This document shows positions 3,394 to 62,719 of a DNA stretch of 64,000 nt, one piece after another; the first letter of the stretch is position 1, and the number at the start of each line of letters is the position of its first letter. Source of the stretch: Patescibacteria group bacterium. GTDB lineage: Bacteria > Patescibacteriota > Minisyncoccia > Phycocordibacterales > WO2-35-19. The stretch covers positions 4,344-68,343 of the forward strand of contig JBBUFS010000003.1 of NCBI GenBank assembly GCA_038056395.1, read 5' to 3'. The position numbers and the translations under genes were made by a program. Below the pieces are notes generated by a model. It saw nothing but the letters and a program-made list of their open reading frames with translations, had not been told where the DNA came from and ran no database searches.

Positions 3394-3513
3394 TAACCTC
3401 TCCCCGTCCCTCTCCTTACCTTAAGGAGGGGGTGACTACTATTTATTATTCAGCCGTTGAGTGGAACTTGTTGCGCGGTTCCCTCCTTAAAATAAGGAGG
3501 GTTAGGGAGGTTA
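3394..3513. repeat. Degenerate closed member of the cloverleaf repeat family (outer stem plus two CCCTC..GAGGG hairpins around a 48-nt insert)
   Basis: TAACCTC (3394-3400) pairs with GAGGTTA (3507-3513). Hairpins CCCTCTCCTT/AAGGAGGGGG at 3408-3432 and CCCTCCTTA/TAAGGAGGG at 3481-3501. Confidence 0.6.
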
Positions 3514-4161
3514 GGTTTGAGAAAGTTTCTTACAAAAACTTTTGCGATGGATTTCGGAAAGACCGTGTTTGAGGAGGAGGGAGTAATGGAGCTTTGTACC
3601 ATACCCTTTGTGAATTGGAAACATATAGAGAGGGAATTTCCCGCCCAGGCGGCACATTAGGCGGTCGCGGCGGACTTTGGCGACAATGGAGGCACAGGCA
3701 ATAAAAATATCTTTACTATCGCCTCCAATTATGGTTTTTTGATTTTTAAATTCTTTTGGCGCTTTGAGCAGACCATCCAACTTAATATTAAAAGTATCAA
3801 AGGTGCCCTTTGAGTTTTGTAAAGTGTGTTGTAATTTTTTTAAACATCTTTTTATTCCCAATCCTGTCGCATAAGAAATTCCTTTTTTGTCTATTATCTT
3901 ATTTGAAATGTGGGAGACTTTAAAATTTATTTTTCTTGTCCCGCGAAGCTTTAGCGAAGTGGGATTTTTCCTTAATTTCAAAAATTCTTTATAAATTTCT
4001 TTTCTTCTTTTTGGAGAAAACTGCTTTGAATCTTTTATTTTGCCACCCAGTATTTTTATAAGCTTGCTTCTCAAATTTTGAGGGGCTAGAAATGCCGACA
4101 AAGTTATAGGTCCCGCCAAGGGCCCTCTCCCCGCTTCGTCAATCCCAATTATGTAGATCAT
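3511..4161 (-). CDS. rnhB: Ribonuclease HII
   Basis: 216 aa, MIYIIGIDEAGRGPLAGPI... typical RNase HII N-terminus. Contains two repeat-derived segments (listed separately). Confidence 0.9.
   Translation of the reverse strand: MIYIIGIDEAGRGPLAGPITLSAFLAPQNLRSKLIKILGGKIKDSKQFSPKRRKEIYKEFLKLRKNPTSLKLRGTRKINFKVSHISNKIIDKKGISYATGLGIKRCLKKLQHTLQNSKGTFDTFNIKLDGLLKAPKEFKNQKTIIGGDSKDIFIACASIVAKVRRDRLMCRLGGKFPLYMFPIHKGYGTKLHYSLLLKHGLSEIHRKSFCKKLSQT
3797..3840. repeat. 44-nt segment inside rnhB duplicated at 56597-56640
   Basis: TCAAAGGTGCCCTTTGAGTTTTG is identical at both loci (23 nt); 38 of 44 nt match overall. Confidence 0.8.
3938..3965. repeat. Family B GC-rich repeat inserted in frame in rnhB (encodes PTSLKLRGT)
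   Basis: CCGCGAAGCTTTAGCGAAGTGGGA versus CCGCGAAGCTTCTGCGAAGTGGGA in rplU (59211-59234). Confidence 0.75.
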
Positions 4162-4167
4162 GTATGA

Positions 4168-4173
4168 ATTATA
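4168..4173 (-). promoter_or_regulatory. -10 hexamer TATAAT 6 nt upstream of the rnhB ATG (leaderless-type)
   Basis: Minus strand reads TATAAT-tcatac-ATG; no Shine-Dalgarno. Confidence 0.5.
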
Positions 4174-4195
4174 ACTTAACTTTAAATATGGCGGA

Positions 4196-4238
4196 GCCCC
4201 CTTCCCCTTAGCAAGGGGAAGGGTTTGGGGATGAGGTC
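4196..4238. repeat. Fragment of the cloverleaf repeat family (central hairpin plus 3' outer-stem-like GGGGATGAGGT)
   Basis: CCCTTCCCCTTagcAAGGGGAAGGG followed by TTTGGGGATGAGGT; compare 42407-42431 and 42467-42482. Confidence 0.65.
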
Positions 4239-4246
4239 TTTTGTAT

Positions 4247-4252
4247 TATAAT
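4247..4252 (+). promoter_or_regulatory. -10 hexamer TATAAT 6 nt upstream of the dnaE ATG (leaderless-type)
   Basis: TATAAT-gccaat-ATG(4259); no Shine-Dalgarno. Confidence 0.5.
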
Positions 4253-4258
4253 GCCAAT

Positions 4259-7200
4259 ATGAAATTTACTCATCTCCATACCCACTCCCACTATTCCCTG
4301 CTTCAAGCTTTACCTAAGATTCCAGAGCTTATAGAAGCGGCTAAAAAGGAGGAGATGGAAGCTTTGGCGCTGACAGATAACGGCAATATGTACGGCGCTA
4401 TTGAATTTTATAAGGAGTGCAAAAAAGCCGGCATTAAGCCGATTATTGGCGTGGACGCTTATCTGGCCGGCCGCACCCGATTTGACAAACAGGCCGGTAT
4501 TGATAAAGATAGATTCAGATTGATTTTGCTTTGCAAAAATGAAACAGGTTATAAAAATCTTTTGAAATTAGTGTCAGCATCTTATTTGGAAGGATTTTAT
4601 TATAAACCGCGTATTGATTTTGAAATTTTAAAGAAGTATTCGGAAGGACTCATCTGCATTTCTTCGTCCTGGAGCGGGGACATTTCCACCGCTTTAAGAA
4701 ATAAAAATGTGGAACTGGCCAGAGAGTTGGTGCAGAAATATAAAAAAATTTTTGATGGAAATGATGATGGCGATTTTTACATTGAAATCACTAAACATCC
4801 GGAGCTGTCTGGACATAACGAACATATGGATATCTTGGCAGAGTTTGCCAAAGAAAATTCAATTGGAATCGTGGCTGCTCACGATGTTTATTATATCGCG
4901 CCGGAAGACAAAGAAGCTAAAAATACTTTAATGGCGGTAAGTCAAGGTGCTCCGCAGAGTAATGGCGAAAGGGGTGCTTGGGATAATGAAGATGAGGATT
5001 TCTCTTTTCTCTCGGAAGCTGAAATTGGGGAAAGGTTTAAGAATATGCCAGAAGCAATTTTCAACAACCATAAAATTACCGCTCTTTGCAATTTGGAATT
5101 GGAATTAGGTAGATGGTCTTTCCCCGACTTGAAGGTGGAGTCTGGAAAGAGTTATAACGAAGAATTGCGCGATCTAGCTTACAGCGGATTGGAAAAACGC
5201 GGCCTGCCGCGGAGCAAAGAGGTGATAGAAAGACTGGAATACGAGCTCAATATCATAGTAACAAAAGGGTATTGCCCGTATTTTTTGGTGGTGGCTGACT
5301 TAATGAATTACGCTCATGAGCACGGCATATTAACAAACATAAGAGGATCGGTCTCTGGATCGCTGGCAACCTACGCTTCCAATATTACAAATATAAACCC
5401 GTTGGAATACGAAATACCTTTTGAAAGATTTTTGAATCCGGACCGGCCCTCCGCGCCGGACATAGATATAGATTTTGCGGATAACAGGCGCGATGAAATA
5501 GTGGAATACGTCAAGAAAAAATATGGCGAGGATAAAGTAGCCCAAATAGGCACTTTTGGCACTATGATGGCTCGCGGCAGTGTAAGGGACACGGCTCGGG
5601 CTCTTGGTTTTGCCTACACCATTGGAGACAAAATAGCCAAACTTATCCCCATGGGCCAGCAAGGTTTTCCTATGACCATTGATCGCGCTCTAGCTGAAGT
5701 GCCGGAACTGGCAGAGCTTTATAAAAAAGACGCCGATTCAAAAAAAATAATAGATATGGCCAAAAAAATTGAAGGCTGCGCCAGACATATCGGAGTGCAT
5801 GCGGCTGGCGTAGTTATCAGCCCAACCGATTTAACCGACTTTACTCCTCTTCAATATGATCCAAAAGGCGAAGGCAAAATAATTACTCAATATGATATGT
5901 ACAGTGTAGATGAAAACGGCGCCGGGCTTTTGAAATTTGATTTTTTGGGGCTAAAAAATCTTTCCATTATTGCGGCCACTATTGCTTTAGCTAAAAAAAC
6001 AAAAGAGACAGAAATAGATTTGGACAAAATGCCGATTGACGATAAGAAAACATTTGAAATGTTAGCTCGGGGGGAAACAGAGGATCTTTTTCAGCTCAAT
6101 GGCGACGGTATGACCCGATTTTTGGTAGAACTCAAGCCTACTTCTATACACGATATAAACGCTATGGTAGCCTTGTACCGTCCGGGACCGATGCAATTTA
6201 TTCCAAATTATATAGAACGCAAGCATGATCCTTCCAAAATCACCTATCTTGATCCGGCCCTGGAGCCAATACTCAAAAAAACTTATGGCATTTTGGTTTA
6301 TCAGGATGATTTGTTGATGATGGCCCATAATTTAGCCGGCTATACTTGGGGCGAGGTTGATAAATTTCGCAAAGCGGTCGGCAAAAAAATTCCCAAAGAA
6401 ATGCAGGAACAAAGAGAGAAGTTCATAAAAGGTTGTATGGAATATTCAAAGTGGAATGAAAAGAAAGCCAAAGAAATTTGGAGCTGGATAGAACCCTTTG
6501 CCGCTTATGGTTTTAACAAAGCCCACTCTGTTTCCTATGGGAGAGTGGCTTATCAAACCGCCTATCTCAAAGCAAATTTTCCCGGAGAATATATGACTTC
6601 GGTGCTTTCGACTGAATCAGGAGATACCGAAAAAGTGGCTCAGTCCGTAGCCGAATGCAAAAGAATGAACATTGAAATTTTGCCACCGGATATAAATGAA
6701 AGTTATTCTGACTTTACTTTAATCAAAAAGGAAGTAAAAGATAGTAAAGAAACCATAAGATTTGGATTAACGACAATAAAGAATTTTGGCGAAGGAATTT
6801 CACACACAATAACTGCTGAAAGAAAAGAAAGAGGCAAATTCAAATCAATGGAAGATTTTTTAATCAGAATTCAGGACAGAAATTTAAACAAAAAATCTTT
6901 GGAAGCTTTGGTCAAGTCCGGCGCTTTTGATAATTTTGGAGAAAGGGGTAAAATGCTCGCTAACACGGAAACATTTTTGGAATACAGCAAAGAATCAGCT
7001 GGCAATAAAGACCAGGAATCTCTCTTTTCCTCTGTTGCTGTTTCAGGAGACTATTCTCCTATTCATTTAACGCCTGCAAATCCGGCTACTCCGGCTGAAA
7101 AACTAGCTTGGGAAAAAGAACTTTTGGGTTTGTATGTTTCAGGGCATCCATTGGAGCAATTCAAGGAAAAACTCTTGGCTCAAAAAAACACGATTAAAAA

Positions 7201-25384: not shown

Positions 25385-25883
25385 GACCCCACCCCGAATG
25401 CCTTACGGCATTCTGCCCCTCACCTTGCGAAGGTGAGGGGAAAAATTAAAACCAAAATAACTTTTAATTTTATCCAAAACTTTTTCAATATCATTTTCAA
25501 CCTCATTATTTTGAAATCTTAAAACTTTATAATCAAGTTCTCTAAAATATTTATCTCTAATCTCATCATATTCTTTGGCTTCTTTTGTGTTATGTATTTC
25601 TCCGTCTAATTCAACTATTAATTTCTTTTGTGGGCAATAAAAATCCAAAATGTAACCTCCTATACTGTGCTGTCTTTTGAATTTATAACCCAGTTTTTCG
25701 TGTCTCAATTCAAACCATAATATTTCTTCTGTTTTTGTTTGATTTTTTCTTAATTCTTTTCTTCTTTCTTTAAGAACCTCATTGTTGTGAATAAGTTTAG
25801 ACATTTTGATTTTTGTTCCCTTCTTATCCCCTCACCTTCGCAAGGTGAGGGGTAGTTCCGCTTTAGCGGAACGGGGTGGGGTC
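25385..25883 (-). mobile_element. Composite palindromic element carrying a DUF559 nuclease gene (cloverleaf repeat split around an ORF)
   Basis: Outer arms GACCCCACCCC (25385-25395) and GGGGTGGGGTC (25873-25883). Hairpins at 25396-25413, 25416-25440, 25828-25852 and 25855-25872. Same module order as the solo element at 42375-42463. Confidence 0.65.
25403..25804 (-). CDS. DUF559 (Vsr/restriction-endonuclease-like) domain protein
   Basis: 133 aa; EEILWFELR...LGYKFKRQHSIGGYILDFYCPQKKLIVELDGEIH typical DUF559. The last about 13 aa (SPHLRKVRGRMP) are encoded by the flanking repeat. Confidence 0.8.
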   Translation of the reverse strand: MSKLIHNNEVLKERRKELRKNQTKTEEILWFELRHEKLGYKFKRQHSIGGYILDFYCPQKKLIVELDGEIHNTKEAKEYDEIRDKYFRELDYKVLRFQNNEVENDIEKVLDKIKSYFGFNFSPHLRKVRGRMP

Positions 25884-36951: not shown

Positions 36952-37554
36952 TTAATTAAACATATTCATCGCTCTGTCTCGTCCGTCGGTGATGAGAGTC
37001 TGGATGGCTTCGCTTACTTTTTTAAAGATTTTTTTTATAATTTCCAGTTCAGCCGGTTTGAATTTATTCAATATAAAATCAATGACCGCTTTCTCGCCTT
37101 GAGGTTTTTTAATTTTTCCGCTCGGAGTTGCGGATGAAATGCCAATTCTTATTCTGACAAATTCTTTTGTCTTGACTGCTTTAACGACTGAGTCCAATCC
37201 CCTATGCCCACCCGTACCTTTATTGTAAGAAATTTTTAATGTTCCCAAAGGCAAATCAATATCGTCATGCACCACAATCAAATTTTCCAGACCTTTTTTA
37301 GAAGTTTTTAATTTTGGCTTAACAAAATAAGAAACGGCTTGCCCTGATTTATTCATAAATGTCTCCGGCAAAATTAAAGTGGCTGGTTCTTTTCCTATTT
37401 TTGATTTTGAAATTTGAGATTTGGATTTTTTATCAAATTCCCATTCCGGAAAATTTAAATCTTTATATAATTTCATAACCGCCTCCCTTCCGGTATTGTG
37501 GCGAGTATTTAAATATTCCTCTCCTGGATTGCCCAAACCTATGATGTAAAACAT
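36952..37554 (-). CDS. pth: Peptidyl-tRNA hydrolase
   Basis: MFYIIGLGNPGEEYLNTRHNTG..., 200 aa. Confidence 0.92.
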   Translation of the reverse strand: MFYIIGLGNPGEEYLNTRHNTGREAVMKLYKDLNFPEWEFDKKSKSQISKSKIGKEPATLILPETFMNKSGQAVSYFVKPKLKTSKKGLENLIVVHDDIDLPLGTLKISYNKGTGGHRGLDSVVKAVKTKEFVRIRIGISSATPSGKIKKPQGEKAVIDFILNKFKPAELEIIKKIFKKVSEAIQTLITDGRDRAMNMFN

Positions 37555-41155: not shown

Positions 41156-42304
41156 ATGCCTCAAATAAAACCGGAAGTAGAAGTCTTTGCCAGAATAAAG
41201 GTAGTAGGTGTAGGCGGTTCCGGCAAAAATGCCATTAATCATATGATTAACTCCAAGGTAAGGGGGGTGGAGTTTATTGCCATAAATACGGATGCTCAGG
41301 ACCTGCATCATTCGGAGGCGAAAAAGAAAATACATATTGGAAAAAATTTAACAAAAGGCTTAGGCACCGGCATGAATCCGGAATTGGGCAAACGAGCCGT
41401 GGAAGAAACCAAGGAAGAGGTACAGGAAGCTCTAAAAGGGGCCGATATGGTTTTTATCGCCTATGGCGCGGGGGGAGGAACTGGCACTGGCGCCGGACCA
41501 ATCATTGCCCGGACCGCCAAAGAATTGGATGCTCTAACAGTGGGTGTAGTCACTAAACCGTTTTCTTTTGAAGGCCAGCAAAAAATGCGGTTGGCCGAAG
41601 CCGGGCTGGAAGAGCTTCGTCAATCAGTTGATGCTCTTATAGTTATTCCAAATGACAGACTCCTGGCCACCATTGATAAAGAAACTTCAGCCAAAAATGC
41701 CTTCGCTATGTGCGACGATATTCTAAAACAAGCGGTTGAAGGCATCTCCGACTTGATTACCATGCCCGGTATCATAAATATAGATTTTGCCGATGTTAGA
41801 GCGATTATGGAAGGCGCCGGCGGAGCTTTGATGGGCATCGGTCGGGCCAGTGGCGAAAAAAGAGCCGAGGAAGCAGCCAAACTGGCCATTAATTCACCGC
41901 TTCTGGAAGTTTCCATAAATGGCGCTAAGGGGGTGCTCTTTTCCATTGCCGGAGGTGACGACTTAACTATGTTTGAAATACACGATGCCGCCAAATTCAT
42001 TACCGAGTCGGTAGATCCAAATGCTAAAATAATATTCGGCACCGTTCGTGATGAAAAACTCAAAAAAGGTGAAATAAAGATTACCGTCATCGCCAGCGGT
42101 TTTCCGGAGAGTTATATGAAGAAAAATTTGTTTGGAGATAAGGGGGAAGAAGATGGCAAAGGCAAAATATTTAATTCCGTATTCAGAACTGACAAAGGAG
42201 ACAAAAAAGAAGAAGAGCCGGAAGGAAAAAAACAAAATATTATAGAAGATGACGATGAATGGGGCGCCGTGCCGGCATTTTTAAGACGTTCTAAATTAAA
42301 ATAA
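41156..42304 (+). CDS. ftsZ: Cell division protein FtsZ
   Basis: [23 protein letters not shown] tubulin signature. TGaTACTCT lies 6 nt upstream of the ATG. Confidence 0.95.
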
Positions 42305-42312
42305 ATTCCTTC

Positions 42313-42357
42313 CCAGGGGGTGACCCTTGAAATGCCCCTGCCCCAAAGGGTCACCAC
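42313..42357. repeat. Family E hairpin repeat
   Basis: GGTGACCCTT (42319-42328) pairs with AAGGGTCACC (42346-42355). Second copy at 56641-56685. Confidence 0.7.
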
Positions 42358-42374
42358 CAACTTTTTTGTTTTTC

Positions 42375-42463
42375 CTACCTCACCCCGTTCCGCTAAAGCG
42401 GAACTGCCCCTCCCCTTTGCAAGGGGAGGGGCAATCCGACGCAAGTCGGATGGGGTGAGGTAG
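42375..42463. repeat. Solo cloverleaf (four-way-junction) GC-rich repeat
   Basis: 12-bp outer stem CTACCTCACCCC/GGGGTGAGGTAG encloses three hairpins: GTTCCGCtaaaGCGGAAC, CCCCTCCCCTTtgcAAGGGGAGGGG and ATCCGACgcaaGTCGGAT. Confidence 0.8.
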
Positions 42464-42505
42464 TAAGGGTTGGGGATGAGGTAGTAATATGATACAATAA
42501 ATTTT

Positions 42506-43432
42506 ATGTACGATTTAATTATTATAGGCGGGGGGCCGGCGGGAGCGGCAGCGGGGGTATACGCGGCTAGGAAGCAAATAAAGACGGCGCTGATTGCCGA
42601 ATCTTTTGGCGGCCAGTCTGTGGAGTCAGAAGAAATCCAAAATTGGATAGGCACCGTAGCTATTTCCGGCATTGATTTGGCTAAAAATTTCAAGGAACAT
42701 GTCAAATTTTATGCTGGAGGTTTTGTTGATATCAAAGAAGGCGAAAGAGTCGGCAAAATCGAGCGTATTGAAAGTAACGGATTTTTGGTTACCAGCAATA
42801 ATGGTGTTTATAAAACAAAAACTATTTTTATGGCCACCGGCGGCTCAAGGAGAAAATTGGAAATAACCGGCGCCAAAAAATTTGAAGGCAAGGGAATCAC
42901 TTATTGCGCCTCCTGCGACGGGCCGTTTTTCACTGACAAGGATGTAGTGGTCATTGGCGGCGGCAATGCCGGATTTGAAACGGCCGCCCAATTATTAGCT
43001 TATTGCAAGAGTGTCACTTTGATTTCTCGAGGGGAATTTCATGCCGACCCTGTTACTGTTGAAAAAGTGCTGGCTGATTCAAAAATGAAAGCTCTGACTA
43101 ATACTTTGCCAGTGGAAATAAAAGGGAACGATTTTGTAAAGTCTTTCGTTTATCAAAGAACCGCTCCTTTTGTGGATAATGTTGAAATTGAAACCGAGAG
43201 CATTTTCGTGGAAATCGGCCACATTCCGGCCACTTCTTTTGTGAAAGGTTTGGTGGAGATGGACGAATATAAACGCATCAAAGTTGACCCCAGAACTCAA
43301 CGAACCAGCCTGGATGGAATTTGGGCAGCTGGTGATTGTACTGATGCTCTATATCACCAAAACAATATCGCCGCCGGCGATGCTACAAAAGCTTTAGAGG
43401 ATATTTATCTGGAATTGCAAAGGATGAAATAA
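42506..43432 (+). CDS. trxB: Thioredoxin-disulfide reductase
   Basis: IIIGGGPAGAAAG, CASCDG redox centre, GGGNAG. TGaTACAAT lies 7 nt upstream of the ATG. Confidence 0.88.
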   Translation: MYDLIIIGGGPAGAAAGVYAARKQIKTALIAESFGGQSVESEEIQNWIGTVAISGIDLAKNFKEHVKFYAGGFVDIKEGERVGKIERIESNGFLVTSNNGVYKTKTIFMATGGSRRKLEITGAKKFEGKGITYCASCDGPFFTDKDVVVIGGGNAGFETAAQLLAYCKSVTLISRGEFHADPVTVEKVLADSKMKALTNTLPVEIKGNDFVKSFVYQRTAPFVDNVEIETESIFVEIGHIPATSFVKGLVEMDEYKRIKVDPRTQRTSLDGIWAAGDCTDALYHQNNIAAGDATKALEDIYLELQRMK

Positions 43433-56535: not shown

Positions 56536-56593
56536 GACCCCACCCCGTTCTGCTAAAGCAGAACTGCCCCTCACCTTGCGAAGATGAGGGTGG
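56536..56593. repeat. 5' half of a cloverleaf-family element (outer arm plus two hairpins, no closing arm)
   Basis: GACCCCACCCC GTTCTGCtaaaGCAGAAC tg CCCCTCACCTTgcgAAGATGAGGG. Confidence 0.7.
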
Positions 56594-56640: not shown

Positions 56641-56685
56641 CCAGAGGATGACCCTTGAAGAATTTTGTCCCAAAGGGTCACTCTC
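56641..56685. repeat. Family E hairpin repeat (copy 2)
   Basis: CCAGAGGATGACCCTTGAAgaattttgtcccAAAGGGTCA; compare 42313-42357. Confidence 0.7.
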
Positions 56686-56720
56686 AAAATTTTTGTGTGA
56701 TTTTATGCTATATTTTAAAT

Positions 56721-61945: not shown

Positions 61946-62719
61946 TTATTTTATTGAATCTTCTATTTTGTAATTGCCTACTCGCGTACGGCGGATGGAA
62001 AGGGTAGTAGCACCACAGCCGAGAGTGTTGCCCATATCGTTTACTAGCCCTCTAATATAAGTACCAGATGATACATAGGCGCTGAATTTACCGATAAAAT
62101 ACCCCACCCCTCGCTTCGCGTGGCCCTCCCCTTGGTCAGGAGAGGGAAAACCAAAAAGCACCTGTTTCCACAAAGTTAAAATTTCGTGCTGTCTGAAATC
62201 ACCTGTTACTTTTGAGATATCCATTAAAAGTCTACTGAAAAGTTCTTTGCTGTTTAATAAATCTAATCCATGAAATTGAATTTTGTGGATAGTGATATTT
62301 TTAATGGGAACATCCTCAGAATCTTTTTTCTTCCGAGACTTTCTAGAAGCAATCATCTTTGATGAATAAAATGGATATTCCTGTTCTCTTTCGCCTTCAT
62401 AAATCATTGTAACTCTTCTGACATCACTCTCCAAAAGTTCATGCAATTTTTCCACTCGCATTATTTTTCCTAAAATATCATACGAATCAGTGGCAAAGCC
62501 GAAAATGGAAACAAAATCGTATTCTTTATCAAGCCCCAAAAATTCTTCTTTCCTTTTTACATCTTCGCCACTCGCCATAAGCAAGACTCCTTCGGCTAAC
62601 GGGTCAAGCCGCCCCATATAAGTCATTTTTTGCCCTTTCAATTCAGGCGTGGCTTTGGCAAACCTTTGGATACACTCAAGCGGTGTCTCTCCGCGATTTT
62701 TATAGAGATTGTATATCAT
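61946..62719 (-). CDS. truB: tRNA pseudouridine-55 synthase TruB
   Basis: MGRLDPLAEGVLLMA catalytic Asp motif; 257 aa. Confidence 0.88.
   Translation of the reverse strand: MIYNLYKNRGETPLECIQRFAKATPELKGQKMTYMGRLDPLAEGVLLMASGEDVKRKEEFLGLDKEYDFVSIFGFATDSYDILGKIMRVEKLHELLESDVRRVTMIYEGEREQEYPFYSSKMIASRKSRKKKDSEDVPIKNITIHKIQFHGLDLLNSKELFSRLLMDISKVTGDFRQHEILTLWKQVLFGFPSPDQGEGHAKRGVGYFIGKFSAYVSSGTYIRGLVNDMGNTLGCGATTLSIRRTRVGNYKIEDSIK
62102..62147. repeat. Cloverleaf-family fragment in frame in truB (encodes PSPDQGEGHAKRGVG)
   Basis: CCCCACCCC tcgcttcgcgtgg CCCTCCCCttggtcaGGAGAGGG; outer-arm motif plus CCCTC hairpin. Confidence 0.65.

Follow-up and report, generated by a model that had tools for sequence, protein, structure and literature searches.

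What is a perfectly paired, four-branched structure of 89 nucleotides (nt) doing between ftsZ and trxB of a Patescibacteria group bacterium? The structure lies at 42375-42463 of a 64,000-nt stretch of contig JBBUFS010000003.1 (assembly GCA_038056395.1), which was analysed as a whole and is called the window below. A first-pass annotation made from the sequence had described it as a four-way junction too tightly packed for a simple terminator, and had offered two roles for it, as a DNA structure recognised by a nuclease or resolvase or as an RNA 3' stabiliser. Our analysis assigns the junction to the BoxC/PIT/TM repeat family, in which it is a double-armed element that has no cargo. The explanation that we favour, with a probability of roughly 0.7, is that it was left behind by the loss of a cassette encoding a DUF559 nuclease, that its arms are cis sites of this nuclease, and that it has no function for ftsZ or trxB.

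The 89 nt read CTACCTCACCCC / GTTCCGCtaaaGCGGAAC / TGCCCCTCCCCTTtgcAAGGGGAGGGGCA / ATCCGACgcaaGTCGGAT / GGGGTGAGGTAG, and the four-way junction is both the minimum free energy (MFE) and the centroid structure computed with ViennaRNA. Folded as RNA, the sequence reaches -73.3 kcal/mol (z = -11.8, equalled by 0 of 200 shuffles), and folded as DNA -43.7 kcal/mol (z = -12.3); the perfect junction that had been described was recovered exactly in both cases. Its stems measure 12, 7, 13 and 7 bp, 39/39 pairs are Watson-Crick pairs, and the junction contains 0 unpaired bases. The earlier count of three enclosed hairpins with stems of 7, 11 and 7 bp is right for the two stems of 7 bp. The middle stem (42405-42433) has 13 bp, because the dinucleotides TG and CA, which had been taken for separators, pair with each other and extend it.

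The four-way geometry follows from the layout of the element. In each half, a spacer separates an arm of the GGGGTGAGG type from a polypyrimidine·polypurine hairpin, and the two units lie on opposite strands with a palindromic central hairpin in common. Both units have as their spacer a small hairpin whose sequence is free. The C-arm and G-arm at the outer ends form a pair of terminal inverted repeats, and their pairing makes up the 12-bp closing stem. A search pattern for such a cargo-less double-armed element had an expectation of 0.00 (100 shuffles of the window). The coordinates of the parts and of the other features discussed below are collected in Table 1.

Judged by their sequence, the arms are a repeat that had already been described, which the first-pass annotation missed: the BoxC repeat, which is the same as the PIT (potential intrastrand triplex) element and as TM/TM_ECO (PMC4666352), and whose history in E. 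coli goes back to the 1990s (Bergler 1992, Bachellier 1990s and Hoyne/Maher 2000, cited in Holder et al. 2015, PMC4666352). The E. coli unit is composed of a hairpin CCCTCTCCC-loop-GGGAGAGGG, a 3-nt spacer and an arm GGGTGAGGG; MG1655 has 23 copies of BoxC, and over 260 genomes contain related motifs (PMC4666352). The units of the window repeat this plan with a hairpin of the CCCTCTCCC type, a spacer, and an arm of the GGGTGAGGG type, which in the BoxC family is the mirror of the purine strand. Their arm core GGGTGAGG is identical to the TM_ECO arm, the hairpin is one stem position off (CCCCTCCCC vs CCCTCTCCC), and 42405-42433 is a short-loop hairpin of the polypyrimidine/polypurine kind that characterises BoxC. 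Dispersed intergenic copies, inverted ('palindromic') pairs, variable neighbourhoods and deletions that leave a hairpin are further points of likeness.

The differences lie mainly in the architecture. Pairs in E. coli are two full units set tail to tail, whereas those of the junction lie on opposite strands, have one hairpin in common and point their arms outward. Perfect hairpins of 17-18 nt take the place of the 3-nt spacer, which results in a four-way junction instead of a simple hairpin. The junction thus departs from the short spacer of BoxC; its relatives have both forms, with 'tta' in the right arm of a homologous locus (L011, see below) and 'ttt' in the unit at 4199 of the window. In addition, the host is an AT-rich bacterium of the candidate phyla radiation (CPR), the triplex code holds at 9/10 positions only, and published BoxC work has no associated gene. 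The junction is a new architectural variant (common hairpin, hairpin spacers, four-way) of a known repeat.

The repeat is abundant, and its structure is maintained. Scanning 705 kb of Patescibacteria (CPR) sequence for arms gave 96, which lie in either orientation relative to the neighbouring genes and have the consensus ACCTCACCCC, ATCACCACCCC or ACCCCACCCC, followed by a spacer of 0-35 nt and a CCCCTC(C/T)CC-type hairpin. The cargo-less double-armed pattern was found in at least 120 stretches of metagenomes. Among the matches listed there, 104 cargo-less elements comprise 60 with one long hairpin, 38 three-way and 6 four-way forms, and five of the six four-way elements listed come from independent contigs (L132, L166, L145, L187, L111) and have small hairpins of unrelated sequence. 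The mean MFE of 85 distinct 12-30-nt spacers is -5.2 kcal/mol, compared with -1.7 kcal/mol when shuffled, and 21% of them reach -8 kcal/mol or less, compared with 2.8% of the shuffles. When six left arms were aligned, 4/7 small-hairpin pairs varied on both sides and 97.6% of the cells were paired; the covariation score was 0.281 vs 0.121 after shuffling (reached by 0/500), and slid registers all collapsed. A compensatory double change is also present in the window, where 56547-56564 has GTTCTGC/GCAGAAC and the junction GTTCCGC/GCGGAAC. The first-pass annotation had expected a family of copies with compensatory changes and would have taken the lack of both for a chance arrangement; both were found.

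What the junction may derive from can be seen at the corresponding site of related genomes. A profile of DUF559 homologues yielded 80 loci from reference genomes, three of which (L008, L009 and L011) are syntenic with the window in the order ftsA-ftsZ-[X]-trxB, with FtsZ proteins that are 89-91% identical. In L009 and L011, X begins, in the direction of ftsZ, with CTACCTCACCCC, after which come a small hairpin and the hairpin GCCCCTCCCCTT; at its other end, CCCCTCCCCTTtgcAAGGGGAGGGG is joined to GGGGTGAGGTAG through either a small hairpin or 'tta', and the trxB promoter that follows is the same as in the window. The cargo between these arms is about 0.9 kb long and consists of a small variable open reading frame (ORF) and a DUF559/EDxHD gene. 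The left half of the junction and the left arm of L009 differ at one base, and the right half aligns with the right arms of L009 and L011 up to the ATG of trxB; at the position of small hairpin 2, L009 has a different perfect hairpin, ACCCAGC/GCTGGGT. L008 keeps the left arm and the hairpin that precedes it (family E), with different cargo. The small ORF between the arms (9299-9733 in L009, ~1907-2383 in L209-L219) has no Pfam hit, encodes 53-158 amino acids (aa), and varies in length and sequence among close relatives. The space between the arms at ftsZ–trxB apparently is a variable slot.

DUF559 genes are associated with such units far beyond this site. A complete unit (hairpin and mirror arm) lies within 200 nt of 35/42 CPR DUF559 genes, on both sides for 20 of them, compared with 54/1077 other ORFs (odds ratio 95, p = 5e-35). 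At loci from outside the CPR (Bacteroidota, Chloroflexota, others) the same is true of 31/48 DUF559 genes, with units on both sides for 17, vs 25/851 other ORFs (odds ratio 60, p = 5e-30). Altogether, units flank 37/90 DUF559 genes on both sides, and they are inverted wherever both sides were read by eye. With DUF559/EDxHD genes between the same arms in relatives and strongly enriched beside such units, the early guess of a nuclease connection is supported to the extent that a nuclease gene family is physically tied to the repeat. As for a Holliday-junction mimic read by a resolvase, the fold of the associated protein is Vsr-like and differs from that of known resolvases. The E…D…H…D catalytic residues of EDxHD homing endonucleases are kept, since E65, D67, H71 and D80 are invariant in 28 sequences (the DUF559 protein of the window and 27 homologues); NCBIfam and PADLOC gave generic nuclease-fold hits only.

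From the adjacency of gene and arms we infer that DUF559 probably acts on the arms. They would then be cis sites that the nuclease nicks or cuts, either as duplex or as extruded structured DNA, and its action could promote copying, inversion, deletion and exchange of cargo at the arms, in a RAYT/REPIN-like or homing-like manner.

Traces of the association are also present in E. coli K-12, where the DUF559 gene ycjD lies ~170 nt from TM_ECO #9 (L208, NC_000913.3 1351204-1351760). At its 3' end ycjD continues into a decayed hairpin, and a duplicated 3' fragment of DUF559 directly adjoins BoxC. Among evenly spaced complete E. coli genomes, those with ycjD have 8-22 BoxC-matching places (median ~15) and those without it 1-11 (median ~4-5); these counts follow phylogroup, so that cause and confounding are inseparable for ycjD. 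In the literature, 'DUF559 domain-containing protein' is enriched among predicted targets of programmed inversion (PMC9881135), as would be expected from flanking inverted repeats. A common function of the genes flanking BoxC was sought in E. coli and none was found (PMC4666352); the words endonuclease and DUF559 are absent from the text of that paper. We found no published DUF559–BoxC link in a literature search that left most subscription journals outside.

Conceivably, no protein is involved at all: a triplex or cruciform could stall replication and create fragile sites, where DUF559 merely accumulates like other small accessory genes. In E. coli, oligonucleotides form the triplex in vitro, and the neighbouring DNA of TM sites has raised variability, with deletions at inverted pairs that leave a hairpin (PMC4666352). 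At the gene-centred loci, a mirror run of at least 8 triplets between arm and purine strand occurs in 44% of 484 hairpins, vs 8% after permutation of the partners and 5% for the parallel control, a covariation that fits triplex rules. Variable occupancy also agrees with fragility, since E. coli strains have ycjD or else the eefRABCD operon at the sapF–fabI site (PMC12817139) and the cargo at ftsZ–trxB varies. On the other hand, the enrichment is specific to one gene family and very strong across unrelated phyla, and the units on both sides of so many DUF559 genes, inverted where read, make arms and gene look like one unit. The two are also jointly present or absent at the pfkB/transketolase site, which is occupied in the window and in L015, short and armless in L010 and L018, and filled with unrelated DNA in L012. 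The triplex itself was undetected in vivo by dimethyl sulfate (DMS) footprinting (PMC4666352). We consider fragility without the nuclease rather unlikely.

Loss of a cassette is also to be weighed against its opposite, in which DUF559 cassettes enter an empty allele at a landing or homing site; the junction would be such a site before occupation, and the window would have kept the ancestral state. The EDxHD family includes proven homing endonucleases (PMC3239194, PMC3384342), cargo-less double-armed elements are abundant, and the cargo between the arms differs among relatives, as entry predicts. With the homing endonuclease I-Bth0305I (PMC3239194), DUF559 has the catalytic family and motif in common as well as the presence/absence polymorphism at fixed sites. 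Unlike it, the genes described here are intergenic, with a structured inverted repeat on either side, and are not carried by an intron or intein, and the protein is a ~115-aa catalytic core alone. Presence and absence at equivalent sites of relatives was seen at ftsZ–trxB, at pfkB/transketolase and at a third site, where the closest cassette, of the same arm subtype and with a protein that is 85% identical, is found in L008 right after the stop codon of the orthologue of window ORF 36952-37554; the site of the window is empty.

The direction of change at ftsZ–trxB was judged from the distribution of occupied sites. Many Zambryskibacteria assemblies have the same occupied arrangement, and in a midpoint-rooted neighbour-joining tree of TrxB the window is sister to one occupied group, with more occupied lineages outside. 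Since the window is nested among occupied lineages, one loss is more parsimonious than several gains, of which a landing site needs at least three. Occupied alleles moreover have two complete inverted inner hairpins, unlike what a simple insertion into one hairpin would give. We thus regard an ancestral empty site as unlikely. By parsimony, the junction is most simply read as a collapsed, cargo-deleted element. Both inner hairpins contain the 11-nt direct repeat CCCCTCCCCTT, and recombination between its two copies, or slippage of replication, could most simply have removed the cargo; either event would merge the inner hairpins into a single central one as it is seen in the window.

The very stable fold could also belong to a structured RNA, either an ftsZ mRNA 3' stabiliser or terminator, or a small RNA of the whalefall-1 type. 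After intrinsic termination a transcript keeps the terminator stem-loop at its 3' end, many spacers have the loop UUCG when their C-rich strand is read, and at some loci the G-arm ends 0-7 nt before the DUF559 ATG, where it is Shine-Dalgarno-like and could be sequestered by the C-arm. However, the order of features at this locus is family E hairpin and T-run, junction, and then the TGATACAAT -10-like box of trxB. The T-run (42362-42373) stops one base short of the junction, whose 3' sequence is TAAGGGTTGG, with no T-run as an intrinsic terminator would have; the remark that this is not a simple terminator was correct. PIT motifs had neither promoter nor terminator activity in E. coli (as cited in PMC4666352). 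Further points speak against the stabiliser: the architecture is the same on both strands, the arms lie in either orientation to genes, and in relatives they bracket a gene cassette, which would place it in the middle of the 'RNA'. For ftsZ and trxB the junction is probably without function, except perhaps as a spacer or insulator.

With regard to known RNAs, the Rfam check that had been proposed returned only three tRNAs in the window at the gathering threshold, and a permissive scan gave one sub-threshold match to whalefall-1 (RF01762) per half. Each match covers positions 1-56 of the 56 of the model, with 26.9 bits for 42376-42434 (minus strand) and 18.8 bits for 42404-42462 (plus strand). 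Both are below the gathering score of 37, which none of 20 further loci reached either, and membership was rejected. Still, the modules follow in the same order: the hairpin CuCuCC/GGaGaG comes first, then a variable hairpin, then the conserved GgGuGAGGA. Whalefall-1 is known only from whale-fall metagenomes and is catalogued as a small RNA of unknown function, and its authors rated it 'certainly RNA' (Weinberg et al. 2010, PMC2864571), whereas our data point to a DNA repeat. Taken together, we hold an RNA function of the junction to be very unlikely.

Other mobile repeats come less close. The junction could be a REP/REPIN mobilised by a RAYT (Y1 HUH transposase), or a miniature inverted-repeat transposable element (MITE) of a DDE transposon: its inverted doublet makes a long hairpin as in REPINs, its terminal inverted repeats are MITE-like, and the arms of the window lineage end in CTAC…GTAG, which recalls the GTAG tetranucleotide of REPs. 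Yet the gene flanked by the arms is DUF559 and neither a Y1 nor a DDE transposase, the arms of other lineages read, for example, ATCACCACCCC or GACCCCACCCC and lack GTAG, and no target-site duplication flanks the junction or the element at 25385-25883. A REP/RAYT origin deduced from CTAC…GTAG was ruled out on the first two grounds, and we give REP and MITE origins together little credence. What remains is a likeness to the REP/REPIN–RAYT system in organisation, with dispersed short structured repeats, inverted doublets that form long hairpins, and a low-copy nuclease-type gene that is itself flanked by repeats, most of which lie far from the gene. It differs in that the flanked gene encodes a Vsr-like EDxHD/PD-(D/E)XK nuclease instead of a Y1 HUH transposase and that mobilisation is only inferred. 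A chance juxtaposition of independent hairpins, for which only the modular make-up speaks, can be dismissed given z ~ -12, a pattern expectation of 0, homologous arms at the orthologous site and five more independent four-way versions.

Several points count against loss of a DUF559 cassette from arms that serve as its cis sites. That the cassette was lost and not gained depends on parsimony over a small midpoint-rooted tree, and the action of the nuclease on the arms is deduced from adjacency. Identical DUF559 proteins were never found in two genomic contexts, always having the same neighbours, and movement is therefore not very recent. DUF559 is missing from 118/120 motif-centred loci, and in the other 2/120 the gene sits 33-59 nt from the element; the relation of RAYT genes to REPs is similarly asymmetric. 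Clades of DUF559 track arm type weakly (0.555 vs 0.501, significant by label permutation but confounded with host phylogeny). The arm GGGGTGAGGT of the junction gives 9/10 purine-motif triplets with AAGGGGAGGGG when read by eye, with a longest contiguous run of 6, and the DMS footprinting result for E. coli and the rating of whalefall-1 as RNA, both mentioned above, have to be added here.

No function has been assigned to BoxC/PIT repeats in the three decades since they became known, nor to the very large DUF559 family, of which a structure has been solved. Our data link the two; the link is statistical in CPR, Bacteroidota and other phyla, and anecdotal in E. coli K-12. The link merges two questions into one that is testable in E. 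coli, namely whether YcjD binds or cuts BoxC DNA and drives the variability there, and it may explain how the repeat spreads. As a tentative extension, BoxC/PIT/TM and whalefall-1 could be the cis partner sites of the DUF559/EDxHD family, in a selfish or domesticated system that is found across bacteria, resembles RAYT–REPIN except that its nuclease is Vsr-like, and whose nuclease reads folded DNA (triplex, cruciform or four-way junction) and not plain duplex. At least one Rfam 'small RNA' (whalefall-1), and perhaps Acido-Lenti-1, is suggested to be a DNA-repeat module, and a class of very stable multi-branch folds in intergenic CPR DNA that would otherwise be mistaken for RNAs is explained. 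The junction alone is of moderate interest; due to its testability in E. coli, the BoxC–DUF559 link is the part worth pursuing.

Scans of the 64-kb window for GC-rich perfect hairpins and arm motifs gave at least five copies of the repeat. The full-length element reads GACCCCACCCC / GAATGCCttacGGCATTC / tg / CCCCTCACCTTgcgAAGGTGAGGGG, a minus-strand ORF of 133 aa, and CCCCTCACCTTcgcAAGGTGAGGGG / ta / GTTCCGCtttaGCGGAAC / GGGGTGGGGTC. Its left side is made up of the C-arm GACCCCACCCC, a small hairpin and the CCCCTCACCTT hairpin, and its right side is the inverted copy. As the loops of the inner hairpins, gcg and cgc, are reverse-complementary, these repeats are true terminal inverted repeats. 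The last 12 codons of the DUF559 gene extend into the arm. The small hairpin at 25855-25872 is the exact reverse complement of small hairpin 1 of the junction, and a similar swap of sides is seen between small hairpin 2 and the left arm of L011, where it is inverted. These common modules suggest exchange or inversion between arms. The arm of the solo unit (4227-4238) is of the same type as the extra G-arm beside the junction, and a further decayed copy lies at 62098-62150.

Table 1. Features of the BoxC-like repeats in the window. L numbers are our handles for loci outside it.
Feature	Position	Strand	Evidence and remarks
C-arm CTACCTCACCCC, 5' half of the closing stem, left terminal inverted repeat	42375-42386	+	perfect pairing with 42452-42463; identical to the ftsZ-side left arm of L009 and L011
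Small spacer hairpin 1, GTTCCGC taaa GCGGAAC	42387-42404	+	fold; module also in L009 and, inverted, at 25855-25872
Central 13-bp polypyrimidine·polypurine hairpin TGCCCCTCCCCTT tgc AAGGGGAGGGGCA, common to both BoxC-like units	42405-42433	+	fold; in L009 and L011, alignable to the inner hairpin of either arm
Small spacer hairpin 2, ATCCGAC gcaa GTCGGAT	42434-42451	+	fold; reverse complement is the left-arm spacer of L011
G-arm GGGGTGAGGTAG, 3' half of the closing stem, right terminal inverted repeat, 'third strand' segment of the BoxC/TM unit	42452-42463	+	fold and alignment
Extra unpartnered G-arm GGGGATGAGGTAG, between junction and trxB -10 box	42472-42484	+	kept as AATGAGGTAG in L011, decayed in L009
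Family E hairpin (10-bp stem, GGTGACCCTT 42319-42328 with AAGGGTCACC 42346-42355, 17-nt loop) and T-run	42319-42373	+	upstream of the left arm also in L008
Full-length element	25385-25883	-	DUF559 gene between arm plus hairpins and inverted copy
DUF559 (EDxHD/Vsr-like) endonuclease gene, 133 aa	25403-25804	-	Pfam PF04480, E = 9e-35; nearest solved structure PDB 3HRL, E = 5e-16
Solo left arm: GACCCCACCCC, GTTCTGCtaaaGCAGAAC, slightly decayed CCCCTCACCTT hairpin	56536-56591	+	motif scan and alignment
Solo BoxC-like unit CCCTTCCCCTT agc AAGGGGAAGGG, ttt, GGGGATGAGGTC	4199-4238	+	just upstream of the dnaE start; hairpin scan
Double-armed copy, decayed, probable: AACCTCTCCCC … two CCCTCCTT hairpins … GGGAGGTTAGG	3396-3514	+	scans

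The junction is flanked by ftsZ (41156-42304) and the thioredoxin-reductase-like gene trxB (42506-43432). A partial repeat of the closing arm had been noted behind it and does exist, as the extra G-arm of Table 1, two nucleotides downstream of the 42470-42482 first given. The family E hairpin in front of the junction had been placed at 42313-42357 and is likewise present, with a 10-bp core and a T-run. A promoter and terminator scan of 42200-42600 called nothing; this simple scan passes over the family E hairpin because its loop is longer than 8 nt. The hairpin and its T-run are likely the ftsZ terminator. A second copy of family E follows the solo arm, at ~56647-56695, and another one lies at the orthologous site of L008 (reverse complement of 4054-4752, first 60 nt); family E is possibly a terminator module that moves along with the arms.

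Short-read contigs with this ftsZ (L004, L005 and L006) stop 50-58 nt past its stop codon, just before the junction, and assembly gaps (N-runs) lie at arms in two reference metagenome-assembled genomes (MAGs), in the ftsZ–trxB spacer of L008 and beside the arm in L015. As the arms break assemblies, they are probably under-counted in MAGs.

Many spacer loops are TTCG on the C-rich strand, which is CGAA on the G-rich strand (e.g. L036, L134, L140, L192, L130). cUUCGg is a stable RNA tetraloop and C-GAA-G an unusually stable DNA mini-hairpin; as the loops fit both motifs, they cannot discriminate RNA from DNA.

The G-arms that end 0-7 nt before the DUF559 ATG have the form GGGGTGAGGA/T or GGGGTGGT (L013 9841-9932, L025 9906-10000, L033 9855-9940, L035, L037, L039, L012), and a promoter-like TAGTATAAT is found inside the element at these loci. 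Pairing of C-arm and G-arm would sequester the ribosome-binding site of the nuclease gene. At four other loci (L061, L075, L077 at ~10000, and L081 at ~1700), a DUF559 segment with arm-like flanks apparently lies in-frame within a larger gene, whose coding sequence around the segment gives the impression, and no more than that, of a type I restriction R subunit.

Matches to Acido-Lenti-1 (RF01687) above its gathering score (45-56 bits) were found at most ~10 nt from BoxC-like double-armed elements, at 170-215 and 304-349 of L150, 484-530 of L091 and 1206-1252 of L162. In L150 they lie on both sides of the element and are inverted. The Acido-Lenti-1 'small RNA' may thus be an outer module of composite DNA repeats.

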